Below, piece after piece: positions 1 through 56,442 of a stretch of 64,000 nucleotides of DNA; the stretch's first letter is position 1; the number at the start of each line of letters is the position of its first letter. This DNA comes from an uncultured bacterium (GTDB taxonomy: Bacteria; Omnitrophota; Omnitrophia; Omnitrophales; Aquincolibacteriaceae): contig CAYSSX010000004.1 in NCBI GenBank assembly GCA_964434115.1, positions 175,688-239,687 of the forward strand. Reading direction: 5' to 3'. The notes under the pieces are model-generated. The model did not search any database. It was not told the origin of the DNA and saw only the letters and a program-made list of their open reading frames with translations. Position numbers and translations under genes: made by a program.

Positions 1-2048
1 GACGTGTTGAGCAGGATTTCCGTGCAGAGGTTTGAGCTGTGCACCACACCCTGGTGGTCCTGAGGAGAACGGACATTGGACGGATCCTTGAACGTAATCC
101 AGGGATGACCGGTTTCGAAAAGCATGGCCAGCGTCTTGCGCCAGAGCTGGACCGCGGGAATGGTGCGGTGCAGACGGATTTTTCCGTGCTTGGCCATTTC
201 TTCGTATTCCATGTAGCGTTTTTCGAAGGCAGAACCATAAATGTCGTGAAGGTCCGGCACTTCTTCAGGGCTGAAGAGCGTCCAATCCTGGTTGAGAAGC
301 ACGCGCTTCATAAAAAGGTCAGGAATCCACGCGGCCGTGTGCATGTCATGCGTACGGCGGCGGTCATCACCCGTGTTCTTGCGGAGTTCGAGGAATTCTT
401 CAATGTCCCAGTGCCAGACTTCAAGGTACGCGCAAACCGCGCCCTGGCGCTTGCCGCCCTGGTTCACGGCCACGGCCGTGTCATTGGCAACCTTCATAAA
501 GGGAATCAAGCCCTGGCTCTTGCCGTTCGTGCCCTTGATCTGGGCGCCCATACCGCGGACCGGCGTCCAGTCATTGCCAAGACCGCCCGACCACTTCGAG
601 AGCATGGCGTTGTCTTTCACGCACTTGAAGATGTTGTCGAGGTCATCTGAAATCGTGGTGAGGAAGCAGCTGGAAAGCTGGGAATGCAGCGTGCCGGCGT
701 TAAAGAGCGTCGGCGTGGAGCTGACAAACCGGAACGTGGACAGCACATTGTAGAACTCAATGGCGCGGTCGTTCTTCTGATCGCCTTCTTTAATGGCAAG
801 GCCCATGGCCACGCGCATCCAGAAAATCTGGGGCGATTCAAGACGGCGGCCCTTTTCATGGATGAAGTAGCGGTCATAGAGGGTCTGCAGGCCCATGTAG
901 CCGAACTGCAGATCCCGTTCAGGTTTCAGGGCAGCGCCGAGCTGTTCAATGTCGAATTCCAGAAGGGCCGGGCTCATGCGCTGGTAACGGACCCCCGCCT
1001 CAATCGAGGAACGAAGAGCGGCCGGGTACGCGGAACGCATTTCCTTGAGCGTAATCGGACGGCCCACGACCTGCGAATAGCAGGTGCGAAGAAGAAGCCG
1101 GGCCGCAACGTAAGTATAAGAAGGCTCCTTTTCGATCATGGGGCGGACCGAAAGAAGCATGGCTTCTTCGATCTGGGAGGCCTTCATCCCCTTAAAACAG
1201 TTCTTCAGGGTGTTTTCAAGGATGGCTTCCACGGAAACTTCGTCTTCAATACCATGGCAGCATTCCGCCAGCGTCATCTTCAGCTTCTCGATATCAAGCT
1301 TGGCAGGATGACCATCATCACCGACGATCTCCATACCTTCTTTCTCGGCAATGGAAATCTGGATGTCGGTCTGGGTCTTGGGCTTCTCTTCACGTTCCTT
1401 GCGGCGTTCCTCGCGGTAAACGATGTAGCGCTTCGCGATTTCAGGGTGGCCGGACTTCATGAGCGTGCGCTCGACGATATCCTGGATCTCTTCTATATCT
1501 ATTGTATAGATTCCTGAAGAGAGGGCCTTGATCTGGGTCGTGACCCGCTCGGTCATCTCAAGAACGAATTTGCGGGAAGCGCCGTCAAGCGGCTGATCGC
1601 CCCGGAGAGCGGCAAACGCCTTACCCACGGCAATGGAGATCTTCTCAGGCTTAAAGGAAACCACCTTGCCGTCGCGTTTCTTGACCGTGATACGTTCGTT
1701 TTCAAAGCGTTTCAGTTCATGAATGCGGCGGTAAGCGGCATAACGGCTCGAAATCTCGTCAAAGCCCTGTTCTTTCAATTCGCGGACAACGGTATTCTGA
1801 ATATCTTCAATAAAGACAATATGGTTCTTGGCAGCACCCTGGGTTTCACACCACTTCACGACGGCTTCAGTGACTTTGCGGACATTGGCCTTGGAAGAAG
1901 CATCAAGTTCGGATTCAAGCGGGACATTATAGAAGGCCTTAAATGCGCTTTCGATGGCGTTGAAGATGTGGACGTCATAAAAAGGAACTTGCTGGCCGTT
2001 TCTTTTTTTGACCGTCAGTGAAGACACTCCGGGGGTGGATTGAATCAT
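1..2048 (-). CDS. nrdA: Class I ribonucleoside-diphosphate reductase alpha subunit, N-terminal ~680 aa only (C-terminus beyond window start)
   Basis: Minus-strand ATG at 2048..2046 preceded by AGGAGG (revcomp of 2053..2058). Translation MIQSTPGVSSLTVKKRNGQQVPF... has two ATP-cone-like segments, ...VLSTFRFVSSTPTLFNAGT... and the ...SSNLCTEI... active-site loop, and is still open at position 1. Plus-strand ORFs 39..650, 292..753, 684..1517 and 1719..2021 are antisense artefacts. Confidence 0.9.
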   Translation of the reverse strand, partial: MIQSTPGVSSLTVKKRNGQQVPFYDVHIFNAIESAFKAFYNVPLESELDASSKANVRKVTEAVVKWCETQGAAKNHIVFIEDIQNTVVRELKEQGFDEISSRYAAYRRIHELKRFENERITVKKRDGKVVSFKPEKISIAVGKAFAALRGDQPLDGASRKFVLEMTERVTTQIKALSSGIYTIDIEEIQDIVERTLMKSGHPEIAKRYIVYREERRKEREEKPKTQTDIQISIAEKEGMEIVGDDGHPAKLDIEKLKMTLAECCHGIEDEVSVEAILENTLKNCFKGMKASQIEEAMLLSVRPMIEKEPSYTYVAARLLLRTCYSQVVGRPITLKEMRSAYPAALRSSIEAGVRYQRMSPALLEFDIEQLGAALKPERDLQFGYMGLQTLYDRYFIHEKGRRLESPQIFWMRVAMGLAIKEGDQKNDRAIEFYNVLSTFRFVSSTPTLFNAGTLHSQLSSCFLTTISDDLDNIFKCVKDNAMLSKWSGGLGNDWTPVRGMGAQIKGTNGKSQGLIPFMKVANDTAVAVNQGGKRQGAVCAYLEVWHWDIEEFLELRKNTGDDRRRTHDMHTAAWIPDLFMKRVLLNQDWTLFSPEEVPDLHDIYGSAFEKRYMEYEEMAKHGKIRLHRTIPAVQLWRKTLAMLFETGHPWITFKDPSNVRSPQDHQGVVHSSNLCTEILLNT

Positions 2049-2562
2049 ACTGCCTCCTCTAAAAGGGATTTGTATCAGAATAATTTATTAAAACTTTAGA
2101 AAAACCTACGAGAAGTTTCTGCTTTTGTTTCGAGGGTGTAAGTGGCAAAACGGATTGTTGTTTGATGGATGTCAAACCAACCATTTGCGGCTCCTCAAGG
2201 CCTCTCCCCTTTTCCGGGGGAAGCGACTCAAGTTTCGGTTTTGATCCTGGATTTGGGGTCCTCGGAAAATCCTCAAAAAAACGCTTGAAAAAACACCTGC
2301 TTTTTCAGGTCTCTTCAAAGATCGGCAGCTTTAGCCTAAAACCTAAGTCTTGTATCGCGCAGAGGAAAATACAACAAGATGTAGTGGAAGTCAACGGCCT
2401 TTTCAAAAAAAACTTACTTTCCAAATGCGTCAAAAAAGACTTGCTGAACTGTCATAAAAAACAGAATGATTTTAGTGCTTTTTTTTTGAAAAAAATAGTT
2501 GAAAGTTAAAAATTTTTTAATGAAAAAAATTTCGTATGAAGAGAAATTTTCAATTCGTTGAA

Positions 2563-2895
2563 TTATTTTTTAAAAATCAGCGAGTGAATCACAAAAGCAG
2601 CGTAAAGAAGTGCGAACGCACTCGTGTAAGTGAGAAAAAAATTCATCTTCATCCAGCGGTTCAAAAAAAACGGAAGGAAGAAGACAAGCGAGAGCGGAAC
2701 ACCGGCGAGAATCGACACCGCGAACGTGTTGACCTTGTCCATGTCGCGGAATTCGTAATAAGAAAACGCGAGCGAGAGAATCGACATGATCGGAAGCGCG
2801 ATGATGAAGCCCGCGAGCGCGGGATTGCGGCCCGAGAGGTGCGACGCGTAAGCAATCGTGAGACCTGAGAGAATAATTTTAAAAACAAAGAACAT
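2563..2895 (-). CDS. Small integral membrane protein (3 predicted TM helices), function unknown
   Basis: 110 aa hydrophobic ORF; minus-strand RBS AAGGAGG (revcomp of 2898..2904) 2 nt upstream of ATG 2895. Confidence 0.55.
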   Translation of the reverse strand: MFFVFKIILSGLTIAYASHLSGRNPALAGFIIALPIMSILSLAFSYYEFRDMDKVNTFAVSILAGVPLSLVFFLPFFLNRWMKMNFFLTYTSAFALLYAAFVIHSLIFKK

Positions 2896-2968
2896 GAATC
2901 CCTCCTTTTAGATTGGGCATGGTGACTAGCCCCATTCTGCATCATTCAGCGCGGAGGTCCAAGAATAT

Positions 2969-3036
2969 TTGCCGCCGCGAGTTCCGCAGGAACGAAGTGA
3001 CGAGGACTGTCTGAGCGCCGGAAAAGACTTTTGGGA
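2969..3036. repeat. Copy 1 of a ~57-60 bp conserved repeat (GCCGCCGCGAGTTCCGCAGGAACGAAGTGACGAGGACTGTCTGAGCGCCGGAAAA...); candidate structured RNA
   Basis: Near-identical to 5066..5131 (2 substitutions in the 57 bp core). Contains the perfect hairpin GTTCC-GCA-GGAAC. Lies 12 nt 3' of the stop of the minus-strand gene at 3052. Confidence 0.6.
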
Positions 3037-3051
3037 CTGGCAAAAAAAGTG

Positions 3052-3612
3052 CTAGTACAATTCGCGGCGTAAGGCGGGATTCATCTTCGCGGGCGACCAG
3101 GGCGGGTCAAAGGTCAAATCGATCTTGCATTCCTTCACACCCGGCACGGTCAGAATCTTGCGTTCAGCGTCTTTCTTGATCCAATCCCCCATGCCGCAGC
3201 CCGGCGCGGTCAAAGTCATCAGGATCTCTACCTTGTATTCCGCGGGGTTTTCAGGCAGTTCATTCACATCGCAGCGGTAAATCAGGCCCAGATCCACGAT
3301 GTTATGCGCGATTTCAGGGTCATAACAGGAGCGGAGCTTGAGCATGACCTGCTCATCCACGGGTTTGTCGGAGTGATTTGCGTGATATTCCTTGGGGATT
3401 TCGCGTCCCAAGGCGTCCGCATCGCGGCCGGAGAGGCTGGCCATGGTGGATTGATGCGTCAAAATCGTGAAAGTGCCGCCCAAAGCCTGGGTAATACGAA
3501 CCTCGGTGCCGGCATAAAGCGTGATGTCCTGACCGCCTGGAACCGTCACGCCAAGGCAATCGCGTTTAAGGGCAATCCATTCTTCGGGTTTAGCGGATGC
3601 AAAGGGATTCAT
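3052..3612 (-). CDS. DUF59 / MIP18-family Fe-S cluster assembly protein (SufT-like) with a ~70 aa N-terminal extension
   Basis: C-terminal half ...YDPEIAHNIVDLGLIY...VEILMTLTAPGCGMGDWI...DLTFDPPWSP matches the DUF59 architecture. Start ATG 3612 overlaps the stop of the upstream ABC ATPase (ATGA). Confidence 0.65.
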   Translation of the reverse strand: MNPFASAKPEEWIALKRDCLGVTVPGGQDITLYAGTEVRITQALGGTFTILTHQSTMASLSGRDADALGREIPKEYHANHSDKPVDEQVMLKLRSCYDPEIAHNIVDLGLIYRCDVNELPENPAEYKVEILMTLTAPGCGMGDWIKKDAERKILTVPGVKECKIDLTFDPPWSPAKMNPALRRELY

Positions 3613-4520
3613 GCGCGCATTTTAGAACGGTACCGGGTACCATTCAAGGCATTTGGTACCTGGTACCGTTCGGCGGGGACTGTTCCAAAAACTTTTTTCA
3701 GGACAGCGGGCGTAAGAACTTTCTTTTTCTCTCCGCAGGCCGCAAACTTTCCGGCTTTGAGGATCAGGCCATGGGTAAAGAAAGGGAGAATGTCTTCCAG
3801 GTGATGGGTCACAAGCAAAAGAGACGGGGCCTTGGGGCTTCGCGCGAGACGGGACAAAAACCCGTAGAGGGAAAACCGGGCGCCCATATCAAGGGCTGAA
3901 AAAGGTTCATCCAGGATCAAGACTTTGGGTTCTGCCATAAGTGCCCGGGCAATGCCTACTTTGAGCTGTTCCCCTGAAGAAAGATTCTCAAACGGCGTGA
4001 ACTCGAAACGGTACTGGGTACCTTTTGGGCCCTGGTACCCGGTACCGTTCAGGCAGCCGAGCTGGCGAAGTTTAGACCGAACCTTGGAACGCAGCGCGGG
4101 GGTAATTTTGTCATGATACGCGGTGCAGCCCTCGGTTCCGGCAGCCACGACCTCAATCACGGTTTCACCTCCCCGGACATGCTTTGGGACCCACGGCGCC
4201 ACATACCCGATCTTCTTACGGAGTTCCGGAAGGTTGGTCTTGCCATACGTCTCTCCCATGACCTGCACGGTTCCACGCGTGGCCCAGAGATAACCCATGA
4301 CCACTTCCAGAAGCGAAGTCTTGCCGGAACCATTGGGACCCAGGATAAACCAATGTTCCTTGGCCTTTACCGTCCAATTCACGCCCTGAAGGACCTTTCT
4401 TCCAGCTCTCGTTAAATAAATGTTTGAGAGGTGAAGGACAGGCAGATTTGTGGGGACAGGTTTAAAAACCTGTCCCCGATCTCCTCGCTCGGCGGTTCTT
4501 TTGCTTACGGATTTTTTCAC
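3609..4520 (-). CDS. ABC transporter ATP-binding protein (ModF-like, orphan ATPase) carrying two in-frame palindromic-repeat insertions
   Basis: Walker A GPNGSGKTS, signature FENLSSGEQ, Walker B VLILDEPFSALD, H-loop LVTHH. The annotated start GTG 4520 lies 58 nt inside the ArfB coding sequence and reads through palindrome 4452..4477, so the true start is probably downstream (~4443..4470). Residues LNGTGYQGPKGTQYRFEF (element 4010..4046) and the C-terminal GTVPAERYQVPNALNGTRY (element 3629..3667) are encoded by GGTACC repeat elements. Confidence 0.75.
   Translation of the reverse strand: MKKSVSKRTAERGDRGQVFKPVPTNLPVLHLSNIYLTRAGRKVLQGVNWTVKAKEHWFILGPNGSGKTSLLEVVMGYLWATRGTVQVMGETYGKTNLPELRKKIGYVAPWVPKHVRGGETVIEVVAAGTEGCTAYHDKITPALRSKVRSKLRQLGCLNGTGYQGPKGTQYRFEFTPFENLSSGEQLKVGIARALMAEPKVLILDEPFSALDMGARFSLYGFLSRLARSPKAPSLLLVTHHLEDILPFFTHGLILKAGKFAACGEKKKVLTPAVLKKVFGTVPAERYQVPNALNGTRYRSKMRA
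3629..3667. repeat. GGTACC-type palindromic repeat element copy (GGTACCGGGTACC-13 nt-GGTACCTGGTACC), inside the 3' end of the ABC ATPase CDS
   Basis: Two 13-mers, each made of two GGTACC hexamers 1 nt apart; same architecture as the other copies listed below. Confidence 0.8.
4010..4046. repeat. GGTACC-type palindromic repeat element copy (GGTACTGGGTACC-11 nt-GGTACCCGGTACC), in-frame inside the ABC ATPase CDS
   Basis: Imperfect 13 bp terminal inverted repeats. Located between the Q-loop region and the LSGGQ signature of the ABC domain and read through in frame. Confidence 0.8.
4452..4477. repeat. Palindrome GGGGACAGG-TTTAAAAA-CCTGTCCCC (core module shared with 10274..10299 and 55781..55809)
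   Basis: 9 bp arms identical to the arms of the 26 bp palindrome at 10274..10299. Sits in the ArfB/ABC ATPase overlap region. Confidence 0.6.
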
Positions 4521-4836
4521 GTTTTAGTTCCGATGCTGTTTTGAAAGGGGGCATACCTAAAGGCATGCCCCCATGATCCCTTTGCCAAATTTCAAATTTT
4601 TCAAGCATCACCCGGCGCGCAAAAAAGCGGTTCGCATGCTGGGAGCGTTCCTTCTGCATTTTCACTTCAAGACCCGAGGGACGGTGCTTTAGATAAACAC
4701 AGGTCGCGGTCTTGTTCACATTCTGACCTCCGCTGCCCCCGGAACGAATAAACTTCTCTTCAAGGTCGGCTTCCAAAAGCCCGGCCTTCTTCATCTGTTC
4801 CGCGAGTTCCTTCACCTTTTCCGGCCCAACACTCAT
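4462..4836 (-). CDS. arfB: Alternative ribosome-rescue factor ArfB (peptidyl-tRNA hydrolase, class I release-factor-like GGQ domain)
   Basis: 124 aa, ...IRSGGSGGQNVNKTATCVYLKH... GGQ motif plus a basic C-terminal tail KREKIRKQKNRRARR. RBS AGGA upstream of ATG 4836. Confidence 0.8.
   Translation of the reverse strand: MSVGPEKVKELAEQMKKAGLLEADLEEKFIRSGGSGGQNVNKTATCVYLKHRPSGLEVKMQKERSQHANRFFARRVMLEKFEIWQRDHGGMPLGMPPFKTASELKREKIRKQKNRRARRSGTGF
4539..4565. other. Hairpin GGGGGCAT-N10-ATGCCCCC inside the 3' end of arfB
   Basis: 8 bp G-rich stem seen directly. It is translated as ...HGGMPLGMPP... in ArfB, so it may be RNA structure within coding sequence rather than a terminator. Confidence 0.3.
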
Positions 4837-4847
4837 TTTTTCCTAAG

Positions 4848-4913
4848 GGTACCGGGTACCCATTGCTGCTTGCGCTGAAATGCTAACCGATACGTTGAAG
4901 GGTACCCAGTACC
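4848..4913. repeat. GGTACC-type palindromic repeat element copy (GGTACCGGGTACC-40 nt-GGTACCCAGTACC) plus a half-site GGGTACCC at 4934..4941
   Basis: Intergenic, immediately upstream of the arfB start. Same terminal 13-mers as the other copies. Confidence 0.75.
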
Positions 4914-5065
4914 CGTGGTGAACATTTCCTTACGGGTACCCATCAACCTGCTCTTTGCGGAGACGAAACCGTCAAGGTTTCGCGAGCACGATGAAGTCAT
5001 TGGGACTTCATCGCCAGCCTCTACCCCTTGTGGGTAAGGGATCTATAAAGTGCCGGGCCAAAAGT

Positions 5066-5131
5066 TTTCCGCCGCGAGTTCCGCAGGAGCGAAGCGACGA
5101 GGACTGTCTGAGCGCCGGAAAATTCTTTGGA
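5066..5131. repeat. Copy 2 of the ~57-60 bp conserved repeat (see 2969..3036)
   Basis: TCCGCCGCGAGTTCCGCAGGAGCGAAGCGACGAGGACTGTCTGAGCGCCGGAAAA. The internal hairpin is kept as GTTCC-GCA-GGAGC (a U-G wobble if read as plus-strand RNA). 82 nt 3' of the ABC-2 permease stop. Confidence 0.6.
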
Positions 5132-5216
5132 CCGGCACCGTTTCCTCCATTTTGTGAGCCGAACGCTCCAGGAAGACAACTATGCGTCTCAGCGATCCAG
5201 CCATTTCCGCCCCCGC

Positions 5217-6023
5217 CTATTCCATTCCGGCACGTACCAACCGCCCCGTCTCCATCGCCCGCCCATAAACCCAATGAAAGAAAACCACGGCCGCGAGAAA
5301 AAACAGCCCATTCAACCCCAGCCCTGTCCAAAAAGACGACGCGCTGAGCGTTTGCCCGGCCAGCACGGCCCGCATGCCTTCAAACACATACGTGCTCGGC
5401 AGACAAAGCGAAATGGCCTGCACCCACGCGGGCATGACAGAAAGCGGGTAAAAAATCGCGGACAACGGCTGCAGCAAAAATGGAATGCCCCAGATCAGGG
5501 CCTCGGCCGCGTAACCCCACCAAAGAAGCATGGACGAAGTGAAGATGCCGAGGATCCAGGCAAACAAAAGCAAATTAAACACCAAGGGAATCAAAGAAAA
5601 CCCAAGGTCTCCGGCGATATTGAATTGATAAAGGAAAAAACACAGCACGGCCAGCACCGCGGTGATGATCAGGGATTTCAGAAAACCGTAAAGAAAGGTC
5701 GCCATCAGCCATTCCCACAAACGGAGAGGTGAAATCAAAATATTCAGAAGGTTGTGATGCCAGATTTCTTCCATCACGGAAATCGTGACCGCCTGCTGAT
5801 TGCGGTAAAGAATGTCCCAGAAAATCATGCCGCCGAGAAACGCGAACACCAGCCCGCCCTTCAGGCCCGGCGCGAAACTGCGCAGATAAATGGTGAGAAA
5901 GCCCCAGACAAAAAGGTCCATCACGGGCCAGAACACCAGTTCCAAAGTGCGCGGCAGGCTGCGGCGGTGAAGATAAAGGTAGCGGGAAAGCATGGCGTGA
6001 ATGCGGGTCAGGGAACCTTTCAT
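5217..6023 (-). CDS. ABC-2 type exporter permease
   Basis: Start MKGSLTRIHAMLSRYLYLHRR... at ATG 6023 overlapping the ATPase stop (ATGA); 6 predicted TM helices typical of ABC-2 permeases. The ORF-track extension to 6170 is upstream read-through. Confidence 0.8.
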   Translation of the reverse strand: MKGSLTRIHAMLSRYLYLHRRSLPRTLELVFWPVMDLFVWGFLTIYLRSFAPGLKGGLVFAFLGGMIFWDILYRNQQAVTISVMEEIWHHNLLNILISPLRLWEWLMATFLYGFLKSLIITAVLAVLCFFLYQFNIAGDLGFSLIPLVFNLLLFAWILGIFTSSMLLWWGYAAEALIWGIPFLLQPLSAIFYPLSVMPAWVQAISLCLPSTYVFEGMRAVLAGQTLSASSFWTGLGLNGLFFLAAVVFFHWVYGRAMETGRLVRAGME

Positions 6024-6775
6024 GAGGATTCTCCCGAAAAAAGATCGCCGGAGCGGACCATTTTGATAAAGGCCTGTTCCAGCGTTTGGGTCGAGCACAA
6101 TTTCTGAACATCCGCGGGCGTGCCTTCCGCAATGCGCCGGCCTTTGTGAATAAAAATCACACGGTGGCAAAGCTCTTCCACTTCATGCATGTTATGCGAT
6201 GTGTAAATTATGCCCATACTGCGTTCGCGCTGGACACGCATAAGAAGCTGGCGGACTTTGTCAGCCATGTCAGGGTCAAGGCTGGCCGTGGGTTCATCCA
6301 GAATCAAAAGCACGGGGTCATTGAGCAGGCTTTTCGCGAGATTCAGCTTCGTTTTCTCGCCCGCGGAAAGCGCGCCGCACAAACGGTTTTTCAGGGCGCT
6401 CATTTCAAAAAGTTCCAGCAGGCCGTGGATTTTCACTTTCGCATTCTTCACCAGGTAAAGGCGCGAAATAATTTCCAGGTTTTCCATCACGGTCAGGTTG
6501 CCCGGAAGATTTCCGTAAGCGGAGGAAAAATTGAGTTTCATGGCCAGCTCGCAGCGCTCGCGAAAAGGGGAACGCCCCAGAAAGGAAACCGTGCCGGACG
6601 TGGGCTTTAAAAGGCCGAGCAGAATATGAAGGGTGGTGGTTTTGCCCGCGCCATTGGGGCCGAGAAGCCCCAGGATTTCCCCGGTGCGGACTTCAAAGGA
6701 GAGGTTCTCCAGCGCCAGGGTCTCGCCATAAAACTTGGTCAGGCCTTCGGCGCGGAGAAGAAGGTCGGAAGCCAT
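6020..6775 (-). CDS. ABC transporter ATP-binding protein (ABC-2/DrrA-like exporter ATPase)
   Basis: Walker A GPNGAGKTT, signature LSAGEKTKL, Walker B LLILDEPTASLD, H-loop IYTSHNM. Confidence 0.9.
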   Translation of the reverse strand: MASDLLLRAEGLTKFYGETLALENLSFEVRTGEILGLLGPNGAGKTTTLHILLGLLKPTSGTVSFLGRSPFRERCELAMKLNFSSAYGNLPGNLTVMENLEIISRLYLVKNAKVKIHGLLELFEMSALKNRLCGALSAGEKTKLNLAKSLLNDPVLLILDEPTASLDPDMADKVRQLLMRVQRERSMGIIYTSHNMHEVEELCHRVIFIHKGRRIAEGTPADVQKLCSTQTLEQAFIKMVRSGDLFSGESS

Positions 6776-6782
6776 GCGGCTC

Positions 6783-7217
6783 TTAGACCTTTTTCATGGT
6801 AACAATTTCTTTCACCGAGGAATACCAGCGGTCATTGTTCAGGCCATTGGCAAAATCATCCAGCTTGGAGCGGAGCTTATCGGAAACCTTGCCGGTGAGG
6901 ATGACAATAATAATTCCGGGCCACATTTTAAGGCCTTTCAAACGTTCAACCAAGGCCTTGAGCTCAGCGGGTGTGGAAAGGTTATGCTGAAATTCAATGG
7001 CCACTTCTTCAGACACCACGAGGTCCGCGAGCACGCCGCCCGCGTCCGCGCGTTTTTTCATGGGGTAGCCGCCCAATTCCTTCTGGAGATAATCAAAGAG
7101 ATGGTCAATGCGGGCGTCTTTGTCCGCTTTCTTCGGCATTTTCCAGGCCGGAAGCGCGCTGCGGATGCGTGATGCGATGTCATAAATTTCGTAACTGCGA
7201 ACCGGTGCAAGTCCCAT
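6783..7217 (-). CDS. Hypothetical protein (144 aa), first gene of the ABC-2 exporter operon
   Basis: ORF on the same strand 8 nt upstream of the ABC ATPase gene; no recognisable motif. Confidence 0.45.
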   Translation of the reverse strand: MGLAPVRSYEIYDIASRIRSALPAWKMPKKADKDARIDHLFDYLQKELGGYPMKKRADAGGVLADLVVSEEVAIEFQHNLSTPAELKALVERLKGLKMWPGIIIVILTGKVSDKLRSKLDDFANGLNNDRWYSSVKEIVTMKKV

Positions 7218-7298
7218 TTAAAGTCTCCTGAATGAGGCGCTCATCCTAGCCGAGAAGCGGATTGAAGTAAAGTGTGATGGCGGAAGCTGAAGGCTTTT

Positions 7299-7311
7299 GG
7301 TACCGGGTACC
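7299..7311. repeat. Solo GGTACCGGGTACC 13-mer (half element)
   Basis: Identical to the terminal repeat of the GGTACC element family. Intergenic between 7217 and 7314. Confidence 0.6.
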
Positions 7312-7313
7312 GT

Positions 7314-7838
7314 TTAAAGCGTTTCTCCGAGAACGGTTTCGCCGCAGGATTCCGAGGCCGTGGCACAGCTGTCCACACGGGGCGTGGCCAAAGTGGTTTT
7401 CACGGCTTCCAGGTTGGGCCTGTCCGCGGGAATAATGCGGGTCACAAAAAAGCTATCAGGATTATCCAGCGGCCGTTTCACCGCCACAAGGGCCGGAACT
7501 TCTTTATAAATCCGCAGGCTTTCCGGCGATTGCTTATAGGCAAAAGAGGTTTCAGGAGGAATAGAACTCTTCAAATATTCGGGTGTTTGAAAAGTCACGC
7601 GGGTCAAGGGAATGGTCACGCCCCGCTGGACCGTGCGCGCAAGAAAGGCGGTGTCCAGCTTCGCGGTAAAGACCGCGTCCGCGGCGCGGGCTTCGGCCAA
7701 AAAGTTTTCACGGTCTTCGGTGCTGGTGTAGGGCATCTCGGCCGCTGACGCGTCCGCCGGGGCCGGATCCGCGGCAAAGGCCGGGGCAAGGGCTGAGAAA
7801 AAGAGGATTGCGATTGAAGAAAATAAAAGGTTTTTCAT
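7314..7838 (-). CDS. Secreted hypothetical protein with signal peptide (MKNLLFSSIAILFFSALAPAFA)
   Basis: RBS GGAGAGG upstream of ATG 7838. The ORF-track extension to 7973 runs through the next gene. Confidence 0.55.
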   Translation of the reverse strand: MKNLLFSSIAILFFSALAPAFAADPAPADASAAEMPYTSTEDRENFLAEARAADAVFTAKLDTAFLARTVQRGVTIPLTRVTFQTPEYLKSSIPPETSFAYKQSPESLRIYKEVPALVAVKRPLDNPDSFFVTRIIPADRPNLEAVKTTLATPRVDSCATASESCGETVLGETL

Positions 7839-7857
7839 AGCCCCTCTCCGTGAATAG

Positions 7858-8076
7858 TTAAATCGACAAAAAATAAATTCCGGCCGCCACAAGACTGACG
7901 CCTCCCGCCACAAAAAAAACCGTTCCCATCTTCCGCGCGGAATCATCAAAAAAATCAGACGTTTCAAACTCACTGAAATGTTTGTGATAGTTCCTGTAAA
8001 AAAGCAGCGGGCCGATCACGAGCGCAGCGCCGATCAGAACCAGAATCCAGCCCAGTATTTTTGAGGATTGCAGCAT
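7858..8076 (-). CDS. Small membrane protein (72 aa, 2 TM)
   Basis: Hydrophobic ORF starting 7 nt downstream of the acetyl-CoA synthetase stop. Confidence 0.4.
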   Translation of the reverse strand: MLQSSKILGWILVLIGAALVIGPLLFYRNYHKHFSEFETSDFFDDSARKMGTVFFVAGGVSLVAAGIYFLSI

Positions 8077-8082
8077 GCGGCC

Positions 8083-10224
8083 TTAAGCCCCCGGGGGAAG
8101 GTCCACAAGGATGCGGTGATCAATCACCGCGCAGCCTTCACCCTTGTTGTAAACAAAAAGCGGATTGATATCGAGTTCCGCGATTTCAGGACATTCCATC
8201 GCGAGCTGGGAAAGCCGCTGAAGGCATTCGGCGATCTTTTCAAGGTCCGCGGGTTTTTCGCCGCGCACGCCTTCCAGAATTTTAAAACTCTTGATGTCAT
8301 GAATCATATGCTGGGCGCTGAGCTGGACAATCGGCGCAACCCGGAACGTCACGTCCTTCATGACTTCCACATACGTTCCGCCAAGCCCGAACATGAGCGT
8401 GGGGCCAAACAACGGGTCTTTGTTAAGGCCCAGAATCACTTCGCGGCCCTTGGGCGCCATTTTCTGGACCGTGACGCCAAGGATGTTCGCGTCCGGATGA
8501 GACTTGGCGATGCGCGTGATCATTTCTTCCGCTGCCTTTTCGACGTCTTCCGGAGTCTTAATATTCAGGGCCACGCCGCCCACATCAATTTTATGCAGGA
8601 TCTGCGGAGAACTGATCTTCACCACCACCGGACAGCCGATTTCACGGGCCGCTTCGCCCGCGGCCTTGGCGTTAGGCGCGAGTTTCATGGGCAGAAGCGG
8701 GAAACCGTAGGCCTCAAGGACTTCCCTGACTTCATAATCATAAAGGGCGCTGCGCTTTTCCTTCACCGCTTTCTCAACCACCTTCCTCGCGCGCGCTTTA
8801 TCCACGGTGTAGGTGATGACTTGGGTGCGCGGCCGGCTCATCCACTCGCCGTACTGAACCATATGCGACAGGGTACGCGCCGCGGATTCGGGGAAGCGGT
8901 AGGCGGGCATATTCCATTTTTCTTCCAGCACTTTCACGCCGCCGGAAACATCCACAATGCCCATAAAACACGCGAGCACGGGCTTCTCGGATTTACTGCT
9001 GATGCGCCCCACGACTTCGGCGATTTCTTCAATGTCGGTCATGGCCTGCGGTGTCAGAATCACAATGACCGCGTCCACCCCCTCTTCTTTCAAAACAATT
9101 TCAAGCGCGGCTTCATAGCGTTCATGCTGGGCGTCGCCGATCACATCAATCGGGTTATTAAAATTCGCGGTGGAGGGAAGGTGTTTGCGGAGTTCCTGCT
9201 TGGTCGGTTCTGAAATTTCGGCCATCTCAAGGCCGTAGCGCACGCAGGCGTCGGTCGTCATAATGCCCGGCCCGCCGGCGTTCGTGACAATGGCGACGCG
9301 GTTTCCCTTGGGAAGTTTGCGGAGCGCGAACGCCTGGGCGTAATCAAAAAGTTCCTGCACGGTTTCCACGCGGAGAATTCCGCCCTGCTCAAAAATCGCG
9401 TTGTAAATTTCATCCGAACCTGCGAGCGCGCCGGTGTGAGACGACGCGGCCTTGGCGCCCTGCAGCGTACGGCCCGCCTTGATCGCGAGAATGGGTTTGC
9501 AGATTTGGGCATCCCCCGTGATCTTGCGCGCGAGCTGGACCATCTCCCGGGGGTGTGAAAGATTTTCCAGGTACATGAGGATGACATCGGTCTCTTCATC
9601 GTTACCGAGGAATTCCAGAAGCTCCAGCTCCGTGACGTCCGCCTTGTTGCCCATGCTGATAAATTTGGAGAACCCGATGTTCGCGCCCTTCGCGTAATCC
9701 AGCACCGACGTGCAGAGCGCTCCGCTCTGAGAAATAAAGGCAATGCGCCCGCGCTTCGGCATGGCGCGCCCAAAAGAAGCGTTCATCGCGATCTTGGGGT
9801 CGGTGTTGATAAGCCCCAGGCAGTTCGGGCCCAGAAGCGGGATGCCGTTTTTCCGGGCAAGCCCGGTGATTTGTTTTTCAATAAGCGCGCCCGCCTCGCC
9901 CACTTCTTTAAAGCCCGCGGAAATAATCACCGCCGCTTTCACGCCCTTGGCGATACACGCGTTGAAAGTTTCAAGGCTCGCTTCCGCGTGAACAATCAAA
10001 ATCGCAAGATCCACGGGATCGGGAATTTCAGAAACCGATTTGTAACAGCGCACGCCCATGATGCTGAGCGCCTTGGGGTTCACAGGGTAAAGCACGCCCT
10101 GGTAACCGCCCGTGATCAGGTTTTTAAAGACCGCGTGCCCGACGGCCTCGGGCCTGCGGGACGCGCCGATCACGGCAATGCTTTGGGGATTGAAAATAAA
10201 ATGAAGCGGATGTTTCGAGGTCAT
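8083..10224 (-). CDS. Acetyl-CoA synthetase, ADP-forming (fused alpha-beta; CoA-binding + succinyl-CoA-synthetase-like + ATP-grasp domains)
   Basis: ...NPQSIAVIGASRRPEAVGHAVFKNL... CoA-binding N-terminus and a C-terminal ATP-grasp domain. Likely start MTSKHPLHF at ATG 10224. The ORF-track N-terminus MVPFTIGTGNMLPVPAVSGTF (to 10317) is encoded by the repeat element 10258..10315 and is probably not real. Confidence 0.85.
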   Translation of the reverse strand: MTSKHPLHFIFNPQSIAVIGASRRPEAVGHAVFKNLITGGYQGVLYPVNPKALSIMGVRCYKSVSEIPDPVDLAILIVHAEASLETFNACIAKGVKAAVIISAGFKEVGEAGALIEKQITGLARKNGIPLLGPNCLGLINTDPKIAMNASFGRAMPKRGRIAFISQSGALCTSVLDYAKGANIGFSKFISMGNKADVTELELLEFLGNDEETDVILMYLENLSHPREMVQLARKITGDAQICKPILAIKAGRTLQGAKAASSHTGALAGSDEIYNAIFEQGGILRVETVQELFDYAQAFALRKLPKGNRVAIVTNAGGPGIMTTDACVRYGLEMAEISEPTKQELRKHLPSTANFNNPIDVIGDAQHERYEAALEIVLKEEGVDAVIVILTPQAMTDIEEIAEVVGRISSKSEKPVLACFMGIVDVSGGVKVLEEKWNMPAYRFPESAARTLSHMVQYGEWMSRPRTQVITYTVDKARARKVVEKAVKEKRSALYDYEVREVLEAYGFPLLPMKLAPNAKAAGEAAREIGCPVVVKISSPQILHKIDVGGVALNIKTPEDVEKAAEEMITRIAKSHPDANILGVTVQKMAPKGREVILGLNKDPLFGPTLMFGLGGTYVEVMKDVTFRVAPIVQLSAQHMIHDIKSFKILEGVRGEKPADLEKIAECLQRLSQLAMECPEIAELDINPLFVYNKGEGCAVIDHRILVDLPPGA

Positions 10225-10257
10225 GTCAAACCGTGTCTTTCCGGGGGGTTCTAAAAA

Positions 10258-10315
10258 GGTACCGCTTACCGCGGGGACAGGTAACATGTTACCTGTCCCT
10301 ATGGTAAACGGTACC
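10258..10315. repeat. GGTACC-type palindromic repeat element, full copy (GGTACCGCTTACC - 26 bp perfect palindrome GGGACAGGTAACATGTTACCTGTCCC - GGTAAACGGTACC)
   Basis: Imperfect 13 bp terminal inverted repeats flank a perfect 26 bp palindrome at 10274..10299. Intergenic between the pirin stop and the Acd start. Confidence 0.8.
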
Positions 10316-10316
10316 A

Positions 10317-11018
10317 TTACGCGAGATCAAAAATTAAAACTTCAGCACCTGCCGCGCCTGCCTTGAAGGAAATTTCCAATTCGTTTTCAAAAGAGGCCCC
10401 GTCTCCCTGTTTCAGATTTTCCCGGGCCAGGTGAATCTCGCCCTTGGCCACCTGCAGCCACGCGTAACGGGAAGGGTTCATCGGGTAACGAAGTTCCACA
10501 TCGGAACCCGGACGGGCCAAAAGAAGCACGGCATCCTGATGGATTTTCATGGACCCTTCGCGCGCGTCCGGGGAAGCCACCACGCAAAACCCGTCTTTTC
10601 CCGCATCAGCGCCAAAGGCCTTTTGCTCATAGCCCGGTGTCAGCCCGCGTTTGTCCGGCATGATCCAGATTTGCAGGAGGTGAAGGGTCTCCGTGTCCGA
10701 AGGGTTGATTTCGCTGTGCGTGATTCCGGACCCGGCCGTCATGCGCTGGGCCTCGCCTTTTTCAATAATGCCTTTTTGGCCCGTACTGTCCTGATGCTGG
10801 ACCCGGCCTTCCAGAATATAAGTGATGATTTCCATGTCGCGGTGGGAATGCGGGTGAAAACCATTGGAGGGCAGGACCTTGTCATCATTGATCACACGCA
10901 GAGAACGGAACCCCATATACCGCGGGTCATGGTAATCCCCGAAGGAAAAGCTGTGATAACTCTCAAGCCAGTCGATCTTGGTGCGGCCCCGTTCATGGCC
11001 GCGGCGAAGATGAATCAT
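10317..11018 (-). CDS. Pirin-family cupin protein (quercetin 2,3-dioxygenase-like)
   Basis: ...FGDYHDPRYMGFRSLRVINDDKV...HPHSHRDMEIITYILEG... pirin N-terminal cupin His motif. Confidence 0.85.
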   Translation of the reverse strand: MIHLRRGHERGRTKIDWLESYHSFSFGDYHDPRYMGFRSLRVINDDKVLPSNGFHPHSHRDMEIITYILEGRVQHQDSTGQKGIIEKGEAQRMTAGSGITHSEINPSDTETLHLLQIWIMPDKRGLTPGYEQKAFGADAGKDGFCVVASPDAREGSMKIHQDAVLLLARPGSDVELRYPMNPSRYAWLQVAKGEIHLARENLKQGDGASFENELEISFKAGAAGAEVLIFDLA

Positions 11019-55752: not shown

Positions 55753-55765
55753 TGCCTTTCTTAAA

Positions 55766-55827
55766 GGTACCGGGTACCTAGGGGACACGTAACTTTGTTA
55801 CATTTCCCCAAGCAGGTACCCGGTACC
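55766..55827. repeat. GGTACC-type palindromic repeat element, full copy (GGTACCGGGTACC - GGGGACACGTAAC..GTTACATTTCCCC - GGTACCCGGTACC)
   Basis: Perfect 13 bp terminal inverted repeats; the central degenerate palindrome 55781..55809 is related to 10274..10299. Confidence 0.8.
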
Positions 55828-56442
55828 ATTTTATTTTCATTTTTACACACTCTTTACTTCAGTCCCGGGCCGGACCGTGCCGAAACATTAGATGCAACAA
55901 AGGAGGACATTATCGTCGAATTCGATTGGATTCTCCATCTCATGACCTTTCTTAATTGCCCTGAGAAAAAACCGCATGACCCGCGCGCCGAAGAGCAAGA
56001 GCCTTTGGCAGCCTGAAGCGGGCCGGCCGGAGCAGTCCCGTCCGGCAGCCGGCAGCGGCAAATCCCCTCACGAATCCCCATACCCTTTTTTCGAACGAGC
56101 GTCTTTTAACAGCGGGGGAATTCCCTTGTCTCATAAAAGGAGTTTCTCTGTCAACCTCCGGAGGCATCTCTATGACGAGCCTTAAACGTTTTTTCATGAT
56201 GCGTTCCCTGCTCAAAGTCAAAGCCCCGTCGAATAAATACCGCCGGGACAAAAGCTGTTAAAACAGAAGTAACCGCTCTTTAATCACCCTGTCAGGTTAA
56301 ACCCGCAGCATTTATTTTAGGCTGTCCCGGGTGGTGAATTTTATACCCTTCCCCGCGTCTTAAAGCTGGAGCCTTCCCCAAGTTTCAATTATAATGCGCC
56401 TTCTTATAAATGATGATTCGTTTTTTACCTGGAGCGCTTCCG

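Follow-up and report, generated by a model that had tools for sequence, protein, structure and literature searches.

An in-frame GGTACC palindrome within an ABC ATPase gene of an uncultivated Omnitrophota bacterium

The window referred to throughout is the whole 64-kb stretch of Omnitrophota DNA that was analysed, and the features that bear on the inserted element are collected in Table 1. Named homologues of its glycogen phosphorylase gave the assignment to Omnitrophota. The product of the host gene was matched by Pfam ABC_tran (PF00005, E=9.7e-25). Its best NCBIfam match was ModF-like and was broken into two stretches by the insert described below, and the nearest solved folds were the orphan ABC ATPases 2IHY and 4HZI (Foldseek against 2IHY, E=1e-25). 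All ABC motifs were intact and in canonical order, their columns were invariant in the homologue alignment, and the ordered Walker A, signature, Walker B, and H-loop, together with the ABC fold, place the protein among the ABC ATPases. Within the first 50 codons, in-frame start codons were present only at codon 1 and codon 47.

Table 1. Features of the ABC ATPase locus and other palindromic element sites in the window
Feature	Position	Strand	Description
Host gene, orphan-type ABC ATPase ORF	3609..4520	minus	303 aa, GTG start; from the ORF list
ABC ATPase motifs			Walker A GPNGSGKT, residues 61-68; LSSGEQ, 180-185; LILDEP, 201-206; THH (H-loop), 238-240
Internal palindromic element	4006..4050		Flank AAAC, arm 4010-4022, loop 4023-4033, arm 4034-4046, flank GTTC; 4010..4046 reads GGTACTGGGTACC-TTTTGGGCCCT-GGTACCCGGTACC
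Second copy of the GGTACC element	3625..3671		Arms 3629-3641 and 3655-3667, 13-nt loop; encodes the ABC ATPase C-terminal tail ERYQVPNALNGTRY
ATGA overlap	3609..3612	minus	ABC ATPase TGA stop (3609-3611) on the ATG (3610-3612) of the SufT-like gene (3052..3612)
Second-family palindrome GGGGACAGGTTTAAAAACCTGTCCCC	4452..4477		Read in two overlapping frames: ArfB-like C-terminal SGTGF and stop; ABC ATPase RGQVFKPVP (residues 15-23)
Long form of the GGTACC element	4845..4916		40-nt loop; directly upstream of the RBS and ATG of the ArfB-like gene (4462..4836)
Solo arm	7295..7315	minus	AAAC GGTACCCGGTACC AAAA; TAA stop of ORF 7314..7973 in its flank
Composite element	10255..10318		Degenerate GGTACC arms around a GGGGACAGGTAAC palindrome; between pirin and acetate-CoA-ligase-like genes
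Composite element	55763..55830		Perfect GGTACCSGGTACC arms around a GGGGACACGTAAC-type palindrome; upstream of a FAD-enzyme gene

The internal element has two GGTACYSGGTACC arms and a loop of 11 nt. As a preliminary description of this DNA had already read from the sequence, the ABC ATPase ORF continues across the palindrome, giving ...LRQLGCLNGTGYQGPKGTQYRFEFTPFENLSSGEQ..., and the corresponding hairpin in the sense-strand RNA had a dG of -26.1 kcal/mol (z = -4.4). An independent Logan assembly (L001) differed from window positions 447..5014 by 1 mismatch in 4568 nt, so the insert cannot be put down to misassembly in a single record. Tryptic peptides predicted for translation across the element include QLGCLNGTGYQGPK and FEFTPFENLSSGEQLK.

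Comparison with orthologues placed the net insertion at 4008..4046, which amounts to 39 nt or 13 codons (residues 159-171, GTGYQGPKGTQYR). That an insertion separates the motifs had been proposed from their spacing, and this part of the proposal stood. Its measurements did not: the insert, put at ~12 codons, is exactly 13, and the distance from Walker A (G61) to the signature (L180), put at ~112 residues against ~95, is 119 residues in the window protein and 106 in insert-free orthologues. In the homologue alignment, the insert segment comprised 20 residues in 117 of 119 sequences and 33 only in the window protein and P0002, its nearest relative (84% identity), which comes from an independent ENA metagenome and carries the same 13-codon insert. 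P0003, P0004, and P0005 (74-82% identity) and all 114 more distant homologues had 20 residues and no insert. At the DNA level, empty sites read TGC CTT CAT TAC GAG and the filled site TGC CTG AAC (39 nt) TTC GAG; the protein and DNA comparisons agree, as had been anticipated, that exactly these residues are missing from orthologues in which the element is absent. No target-site duplication was readable at the ABC ATPase site against comparison genomes at dS above 1, and 6 nt of the empty site were replaced, not merely interrupted.

Selection on the host gene was assessed with dN/dS, which was 0.145 at dS ~1.0 between the two insert-bearing genes (window versus P0002/L002) and 0.07-0.11 between the window gene and insert-free orthologues. 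Judged by its sequence, the host gene remains functional and under purifying selection, and the protein is presumably produced in the cell. The AlphaFold model had a mean pLDDT of 88.9, and 10-residue blocks averaged 93-97 across residues 121-150 and 95-97 from residue 171 onwards. Between these confident core regions the insert, for which a surface loop had been envisaged, was modelled in a loop as a beta-hairpin (strands E162-163 and E169-170, mean pLDDT 78 for residues 161-170) joining the last helix of the helical subdomain to the LSSGEQ signature. From the predicted secondary structure and its confidence, the hairpin would lie outside the conserved core, solvent-exposed and harmless. The tail of the protein (residues 281-303) had pLDDT below 60 and was predicted to be disordered.

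This tail is encoded by the second copy of the element, whose translation, ...PAERYQVPNALNGTRYRSKMRA followed by the stop, ends the ABC ATPase; both this and the overlap of that stop with the start of the next gene were correctly noted before. The RNA hairpin of this copy had a dG of -29.2 kcal/mol. Its orthologue in L002 is decayed, with the right arm matching at 8/13 positions after disruption of the left arm, and in L003/L087 a stop codon lies inside the loop. A second palindrome family (GGGGACAGG...) also supplies coding sequence to the ABC ATPase gene through the copy at 4452..4477, which corresponds to a 7-8 aa indel relative to P0002 and P0003 and is common to P0004. One ATPase of 303 aa holds three palindrome-derived segments: the N-terminus, the internal hairpin, and the C-terminal tail. 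For the long form upstream of the ArfB-like gene, orthologous copies were found in L002 and L003, and paralogous copies stand before other genes in L087.

Each arm consists of two GGTACC hexamers one base apart (GGTACC-S-GGTACC), mostly flanked by AAS...STT, and loops range from ~10 to 40 nt. Since the hexamer pair is self-palindromic, each arm repeats the other in direct as well as in inverted orientation. The short form measures 37-47 bp (37-72 nt for the elements overall), and the dG values of the hairpins, -26 to -45 kcal/mol, indicate high stability. Reading the arms in all six frames bore out the earlier statement that the GGTACC pairs contain no stop codon in any frame, and this applied for any central base; the arms read as GTGY, VPGT, or RY(R/P/Q)VP. 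The element occupies six sites in the window, for which ~0.1 would be expected by chance, and four of the six lie in spacers that separate co-directional genes. Allowing 1 mismatch at most, the motif GGTACNNGGTACC was matched 22 times in the window, both strands counted, against 0.13 expected from shuffles. GGTACC itself was present at 24 sites (4.5 expected), 18 of them inside elements and 6 outside, the latter being about chance. Searches of the window and L087 against Rfam at gathering thresholds gave no match, no IS element was found in the window, and Pfam or NCBIfam scans of ~45 window ORFs detected no transposase or RAYT-like gene, so that mobility of the element is deduced from its distribution only. 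A role as an intrinsic terminator was rejected for the in-gene copies, as neither hairpin is followed by a U-run.

Contigs from relatives carried many copies of the GGTACC element at non-orthologous places. L087 has one in the spacer that separates the SufT-like gene from the next, a place that is empty in the window, and the window element at 10255..10318 is missing from the orthologous spacer in L087. In the ArfB-like gene, independent in-frame elements were present in L003 and L004 and absent from four orthologues, and the linker of this protein held different palindromes in L002, L003, L004, L006, and the window. In the single pair that differs by a recent gain or loss (L003 and L088, dS 0.11), the change looked not like a clean insertion but like a recombination tract that had displaced another palindrome. 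On another Omnitrophota contig, an AddB-like protein contained MVPGTFEPNDQKVPGT in the variable linker between its ADDB_N and UvrD_C domains; homologues ~55% identical had linkers of 35-53 aa, which is consistent with insertion, not with an exact indel. A pattern scan of metagenomes returned 120 loci, ~34 of the true inverted type; most of the 120 were instead tandem (GGTACCS)n heptads, 30-nt tandem arrays, or other palindrome families. Apparent long ORFs spanning the element in contigs of at least 70% GC were rejected as coding because they translate to Arg/Gly/Pro-rich nonsense. A genome collection scanned with patterns back-translated from the ABC ATPase, which amounted to generic ABC motifs, gave 80 unrelated loci, proteobacterial and other. 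The element pattern was unmatched in viral contigs. It was also absent from the glycogen-cluster loci of relatives (L209-L212), an absence that is uninformative on the spread of the family since the glycogen cluster of the window is likewise element-free. Literature searches on the 13-mer and on Omnitrophota repeats turned up nothing beyond primers, tRNA constructs, and broad reviews of repeats.

The two insert-bearing genes were compared within the element. Between the window and L002, the arms were identical at 25/26 positions, including all eight third-codon positions (P ~0.009 at overall identity), compared with a third-codon identity of only 0.55 elsewhere in the gene; at dS ~1, such conservation is not expected of a purely passive passenger. 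The loop was reverse-complemented between the two (7/11 identical when flipped, 0/11 direct), and the flanks had changed in a compensatory way (AAC..GTT versus AAG..CTT). Counted by eye, the P0002 element matched that of the window at 36/43 positions with the whole element reverse-complemented and at 29/43 in direct orientation. The residues encoded by the loop were wholly different in the two lineages (QGPKG versus RSGFG), and only the arm-encoded GT.Y persisted. The flipped insert in a second lineage, the second palindrome family in the ABC ATPase gene, and the elements found in the ArfB-like gene of relatives go beyond what the preliminary description contained.

The comparisons directly show the exact indel, the dispersed family of small palindromes in this genome, the intact and constrained host gene, the stop-free arms, and insertions in other genes of relatives. 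We consider it very probable that one 39-nt copy of this family entered the ABC ATPase gene in-frame, with the ORF surviving. The copy would have entered most likely in the common ancestor of the window and P0002 organisms, probably by transposition-like or recombinational spread of the element, and its landing site would have been the loop that leads from the final helix of the helical subdomain to the LSSGEQ signature. Survival of the ORF would be due to a net length divisible by three and to arms that are stop-free in every frame, which left only the short loop as a possible source of a stop. The 13 extra residues would then form a small beta-hairpin outside the conserved core of a protein that has remained under purifying selection. 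The other copy, which is older and lies at the 3' end of the gene, would have been absorbed into the frame, producing the disordered C-terminal tail that ends in the ATGA overlap.

Several other explanations were weighed against this one. That the ABC ATPase is a decaying pseudogene, a possibility raised at the outset, or that the insert is an assembly artefact, is hardly credible: palindromes can in principle cause mis-assemblies, and nothing else was found to support either idea, whereas the ORF is single and intact with invariant motifs and low dN/dS (0.07-0.15), the NCBI contig and the Logan assembly agree, and the same insert is present in an unrelated ENA metagenome. It is unlikely, though deserving of more weight, that the in-gene copy is kept for a function of the nucleic acid and is not a neutral passenger, the 13 residues being a tolerated by-product; the element might be bound or cut by a sequence-specific protein, serve as a recombination or inversion site, or form an mRNA hairpin that modulates translation or decay in the operon. 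Such a role would account for the near-identity of the arms down to their third codon positions, the compensatory flanks around a reverse-complemented loop, and the stability of the hairpins. The hexamer sequence moreover does not vary between copies, suggesting that the sequence itself is recognised and not just its pairing, the long form stands immediately before an RBS and ATG in 4/4 cases, and its 40-nt loop is identical at 38/40 positions between the window and L002 (counted by eye) despite dS ~1. However, gene conversion among copies or re-insertion could give the same conservation, the decay of the C-terminal copy in L002 indicates that maintenance of the element is not universal, and both in-gene copies have an A-C mismatch, not a G-U pair, in the sense mRNA. 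The element also has no Rfam match and no known binding protein.

The number of insertion events and the level of selection were considered in the same way. Independent gains by the window and P0002 lineages at one hot spot, in opposite orientations, would fit the better match of the P0002 element when reverse-complemented and the repeated hits at other sites such as the ArfB-like linker. We nevertheless regard them as less probable than a single ancestral insertion followed by inversion, since the window and L002 are mutually closest for the ABC ATPase (dS 1.0, against 1.36-2.1 for others) and both inserts are exactly 39 nt at an identical codon boundary, for which one event with a flip between inverted arms is more economical. 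Protein-level selection of the 13-residue hairpin, which might for instance offer a partner of the orphan ATPase a new surface to bind, appears quite improbable. The insert has been kept in two lineages at dS ~1 and is modelled as an ordered hairpin, not as disordered coil, but the loop residues share nothing between the lineages and 117 homologues function without the insert. The GT.Y that does persist is conserved at synonymous sites too, which argues for a DNA-level cause rather than a protein-level one.

The element was compared with known repeat systems. The Rickettsia palindromic elements (RPEs) are described as dispersed palindromic repeats lying in-frame inside unrelated, still-functional housekeeping genes and also in intergenic regions (Ogata et al. 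2000/2002, via PMC10969869 and PMC3733652), with lengths of ~100-150 bp that add 30-50 residues in a peptide compatible with the fold (PMC10969869, PMC3733652). The Omnitrophota element is likewise dispersed, in-frame in a working gene, also intergenic, and apparently compatible with the fold through its added peptide; the analogy with RPEs drawn in the preliminary description is sound as a functional one. It differs in its arms, which are a self-palindromic hexamer pair, and in its insert of 39 nt or 13 residues; length (39-72 nt) and taxon set it apart from the RPE families, whose host, unlike that of the present element, is an obligate intracellular alphaproteobacterium.

REP/BIME sequences, imperfect palindromes 20-40 bp long, are found chiefly in spacers of co-directional or convergent genes, and their ends sometimes provide stop codons (Di Nocera et al. 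2013, PMC3733652). Some REP copies lie wholly within ORFs, units pair into larger structures, and two superfamilies are defined by a GTAG or CGTC tag (PMC3733652). In shape and location, in stop codons at some ends, in intragenic copies, and in paired units they are matched by the Omnitrophota element, whose short form is a palindrome of 37-47 bp and which has four of its six window sites in spacers of co-directional genes. Unlike REPs, the copies have no GTAG/CGTC tag (flanks AAS/STT, core GGTACC, hence GTAC and not GTAG), no RAYT (Y1/HUH transposase), a gene that REPs typically flank, was found among the ~45 ORFs scanned in the 64 kb, and the loops are long and variable, often with the second palindrome family nested inside. 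Bacterial MITEs (Correia, ERIC, BOX) are non-autonomous, have terminal inverted repeats, and occasionally form in-frame fusions with host ORFs; they measure 70-300 bp and have target-site duplications and a recognisable parent IS (PMC10969869). Inverted repeats at the ends and an in-frame fusion with a host ORF are shared by the Omnitrophota element, which differs in its size (37-47 bp for the short form, 37-72 nt overall) and in the lack of an IS in the window; at the ABC ATPase site, compared with genomes at dS above 1, no duplication could be read. The second analogy that had been drawn, with HIP1, was rejected. HIP1 (GCGATCGC) of cyanobacteria is a single octamer palindrome, abundant in coding sequence, that is enriched genome-wide by substitution, whereas GGTACC outside the elements is at chance (6 versus 4.5 expected) and the Omnitrophota coding copy is a block insertion. 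The phenomenon thus belongs with RPEs and intragenic REPs, but the element family behind it is new and much smaller.

To our knowledge, it was in Rickettsia that palindromic repeats were first seen in-frame inside working genes; most documented cases come from there, and a few REP examples come from other bacteria. The ABC ATPase gene provides a clean, orthologue-verified case in the uncultivated phylum Omnitrophota, with a much smaller element. A repeat with stop-free arms can add peptide segments to essential-type enzymes, here a hairpin, a tail, and an N-terminal stretch in two overlapping frames. Such inserts split HMM matches, as in the two-stretch NCBIfam match of this protein, and can mislead gene callers at the starts and ends of genes. 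With the conserved 13-mer, metagenomes can easily be searched for the family and for its presumed mobilising enzyme. A bolder reading, which we hold to be decidedly unlikely on present evidence, is that the double-GGTACC palindromes form an actively maintained, sequence-recognised Omnitrophota system in which a dedicated protein keeps the arms, flips the loops, and nests the families, so that coding copies would act as renewable, invertible peptide modules. If this were true, the Omnitrophota lineage would be the second independent case, after Rickettsia, of palindromic repeats serving as a regular source of protein sequence.

A minus-strand ORF of 303 aa, identified as an ABC ATPase (Pfam PF00005), reads through one copy of the GGTACC element without leaving its frame (...LGCLN-GTGYQGPKGTQYR-FEFTPFENLSSGEQ). 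A second copy codes its C-terminal tail (...PAERYQVPNALNGTRYRSKMRA*), and the TGA stop shares bases with the ATG of the downstream SufT-like gene; both points had been made in the preliminary description and both held. The internal copy consists of two 13-nt arms, each a KpnI-type hexamer pair with 1-base spacing, around an 11-nt loop, and complementary flanks (AAAC/GTTC) lengthen the palindrome to 4006..4050. The best NCBIfam matches were ModF-like and similar importer-type ATPases, many NCBIfam matches were broken at the insert into two stretches, and the nearest solved folds were the orphan ABC ATPases 2IHY and 4HZI. The GTG at 4520 is the sole usable start ahead of the conserved domain. 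All four ABC motifs are present, and their columns in an alignment of 119 sequences are invariant. The Nei-Gojobori dN/dS for the pair of genes with the insert was 0.145 at dS 1.0, and comparisons with orthologs lacking it gave 0.07-0.11, so the gene has been kept under purifying selection while the insert was present and, with its motifs intact, is not a pseudogene. An assembly artefact was ruled out by an independent Logan assembly (1 mismatch in 4568 nt against the window) and by recurrence of the insert in an unrelated ENA metagenome.

Coordinates and sequences of the elements, motifs and other repeats (L-numbers are DNA loci of relatives or metagenomes)
Feature	Locus	Position	Sequence or remark
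ABC ATPase ORF	window	3609..4520 (-)	
ABC motifs	window protein	residues 61-68; 180-185; 201-206; 238-240	Walker A; LSSGEQ; LILDEP; THH
Internal copy, arms and loop	window	4010..4046	GGTACTGGGTACC TTTTGGGCCCT GGTACCCGGTACC; coding, GTGY...GTQY
Second (C-terminal) copy	window	3625..3671	coding, RYQVP...GTRY
Coding copy, ArfB-like gene	L004		RYQVPKDGRVPGT
Coding copy, AddB-like protein	L148		MVPGT...VPGT
Long form (40-nt loop in window)	window	4845..4916	
Long form	L002	1293-1358	
Long form	L087	6336-6401; 9398-9462; 11945-12009	
Solo arm, 13 nt with flanks	window	7295..7315	AAAC GGTACCCGGTACC AAAA on minus strand
Composite elements	window	10255..10318; 55763..55830	GGTACC arms around GGGGACAGGTAAC-type second palindrome
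Second-family palindrome	window	4452-4477	GGGGACAGGTTTAAAAACCTGTCCCC; inside 59-nt overlap of ArfB-like and ABC genes
ArfB-like linker	window; L003; L004; L006	4547-4572; 1006-1063; 348-386; 244-256	
Tandem heptad arrays	among L089-L208		(GGTACCS)n
30-nt tandem arrays	among L089-L208		GGTACCGGGTACC + NGAAAAACCAGAANNGC
Low-GC palindrome family	among L089-L208		TGGAAATAATTTCCA core
High-GC family	among L089-L208		inner stem like GGGGACAGG

Close relatives of the ABC ATPase were found by protein search in other metagenomes (P0002, 84% identity; P0003-P0005, 74-82%). Between the helix end ...KLRQLGC and the signature, 117 of the 119 aligned sequences have 20 residues; the two exceptions, the window protein and P0002, have 33. 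The empty site in ortholog DNA is TGC CTT CAT TAC GAG TTC and the filled site is TGC CTG AAC GGTACCGGGTACC AGGGCCCAAAA GGTACCCAGTACC GT TTC GAG TTC, longer by a net 39 nt or 13 codons; the exact indel anticipated against orthologs was thus found, at 13 codons rather than the proposed 12 or so. No target-site duplication was visible in this empty/filled comparison, and 6 nt were replaced. With the 119-sequence alignment as input, AlphaFold2 gave a model (mean pLDDT 88.9, pTM 0.84) that runs from helix 141-153 through coil into short strands 162-163 and 169-170 with a turn, followed by signature helix 182-194. The insert is predicted to form a beta-hairpin, probably in a surface loop; block means of pLDDT were 93-97 (residues 121-150), 88 (151-160), 78 (161-170) and 95-97 (171 onward). 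Since model confidence is low over the last ~23 residues, as over the first 20, the element-encoded tail is probably disordered. The second-family palindrome is read in two frames, as the last ArfB-like residues SGTGF with the TAA stop and as ABC residues 15-23 (RGQVFKPVP); the 7-8 residues derived from it are absent in P0002 and P0003 and present in P0004.

Stop-free arms had been suggested as a possible basis of tolerance, and enumeration of GGTACC-N-GGTACC with any central base gave zero stop codons in six frames; the loop alone can therefore bring a stop. By frame, the arms translate as GTGY, VPGT and RY(R/P/Q)VP, all of which occur in actual coding copies. The loop of the C-terminal copy in L003 and L087 holds a stop, and AAGGCCTGAAA ends the ABC ORF. 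A net length in multiples of three would then suffice to keep the frame, and such lengths would be favoured by selection. When coding copies of the window, L003, L004 and L175 were compared with L002, the A-rich loop orientation (e.g. AGGGCCCAAAA, AAATGCCTTGAAT, AAAAGCCGGAAT) lay on the sense strand in 6 of 8, the L002 internal copy being a clear exception and the L148 copy mixed. In these few cases (n=8) the bias could reflect stop avoidance or strand-specific insertion.

The internal copy was compared with that of L002, the locus encoding P0002. The arms are identical at 25 of 26 positions, every third-codon position included, against a third-position identity of 0.55 elsewhere in the gene (P ~0.009). 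The 11-nt loop matches at 0/11 positions directly and at 7/11 when reverse-complemented, the flanks change in a compensatory manner (AAC..GTT vs AAG..CTT), and by our own count the whole element matches at 36/43 flipped vs 29/43 direct. This points either to an inversion between the inverted arms or to two separate hits at the site. Both lineages inherited the C-terminal copy from a common ancestor (L002 2500-2620 vs window 3600-3690). Its left arm in L002 is interrupted by an inserted GGGGACAGG-type palindrome that now codes the ABC C-terminus (RQGTGSGALPVP*), and the right arm left behind has degenerated (GGCACTCCTCACC, 8/13) with the loop kept at 13/13, so that arm upkeep seems to require both arms together. 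The conserved arms and flipped loop suggest that the element may be more than mere debris.

With both strands counted, GGTACNNGGTACC at <=1 mismatch occurs 22 times in the window, and shuffled sequence predicts 0.13; the element family is thus far above chance. The hexamer GGTACC was counted 24 times against 4.5 expected, with only 6 outside elements; by itself it is not enriched, and in this the element differs from HIP1, to which it had been likened. Of the six element sites, five cluster inside 6.7 kb at one window end (3600-10320), and the 45 kb from 10320 to 55760 (glycogen, polyphosphate and two-component genes) holds none. Named homologs of the glycogen phosphorylase place the window in Candidatus Omnitrophota, with 79% identity to the homolog of an Omnitrophica MAG. 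Because GGTACC is itself palindromic, the arms repeat each other both directly and in inverted orientation, which makes solo arms explicable: slippage between arms would leave exactly those at 7299 and in L006. The ORF 7314..7973 has its TAA stop inside the flank of the window's solo arm. The computed sense-strand RNA hairpins are strong, at -26 kcal/mol for the internal copy and -29 for the C-terminal one, and composites reach -45; for the in-gene copies a role as intrinsic terminators was ruled out, as no U-run follows them.

The same arms are abundant in relatives' contigs, at sites partly different from the window's. Between the SufT-like gene and the one following it, L087 carries a long-form copy that the window lacks. 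In the window a composite separates the pirin gene from the CoA-ligase gene; in L087 these two genes are set apart by a 41-nt spacer. A further composite (L087 239-296) occupies a site non-orthologous to the window's; compared with 10255-10318, it has its inner part in reverse complement with respect to the arms. In the ArfB-like gene, which has an RF-1 domain, the linker is a palindrome hot spot whose versions all keep the frame. It carries palindrome GGGGGCATACC..GGTATGCCCCC in the window, L087, L088 and L004, independent in-frame GGTACC elements in L003 (replacing the GGGGGCATACC palindrome) and L004 (just upstream of it), a single arm in L006 and another sequence again in L002. The near-identical L003 and L088 (dS 0.11) differ by this replacement (L003 995-1070 vs L088/L087 and L006), the sole recent polymorphism found. 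A fresh insertion or transposition is disfavoured, the L003 flanks being closer to those of L006, a third lineage, than to L088; the sequences suggest a recombination tract, with allelic exchange by homologous recombination. In all cases seen, the long form directly preceded a ribosome-binding site and ATG and had one orientation. Window and L002 agree at 38/40 of its loop positions, with flanking genes at dS ~1. Paralogs inside L087 are more alike than orthologs, pointing to concerted evolution or to recent spread; the long form may act in a 5'-UTR or between cistrons.

On L148, a separate Omnitrophota contig, an element lies in the variable ADDB_N/UvrD_C linker of an AddB-like helicase-nuclease; homologs are only ~55% identical with variable linker length, which is consistent with insertion, and an exact indel was not seen. 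Candidate in-frame copies were noted between M16 peptidase halves on a 64% GC contig (L128 7720-7759, SVPGTDLQSSVPGT) and in a 544-aa ORF without Pfam match (L175 2363-2398, GTGYQDLKVPGT). Exact GGTACCSGGTACC pairs occur in metagenome loci L089-L208, on contigs of 30% to 75% GC.

As functional analogies, the element resembles Rickettsia palindromic elements (RPE), a likeness proposed earlier that holds, and the intragenic REPs in the catalogue of Di Nocera and colleagues (PMC3733652): all are dispersed palindromes lying in frame, within working genes for RPE and sometimes supplying stop codons for REPs. It differs from RPE in size (39-72 nt vs 100-150 bp) and phylum, from typical REPs in having no GTAG/CGTC tag, and from typical MITEs in being too small, with no target-site duplication visible and no parent IS found in the window. 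No transposase was present among ~45 ORFs scanned in the window, Rfam gave no match to the element, and no description of its 13-mer or of Omnitrophota repeats was found in the literature. Both the earlier observation and the reading given to it are supported. In principle the phenomenon was already known, so the surprise is limited; the element is unusually small and oddly built, and the case is clean and well-controlled. Three features stand out: a loop that is flipped, arms that are conserved, and one small protein, the ABC ATPase, with three palindrome-derived segments.
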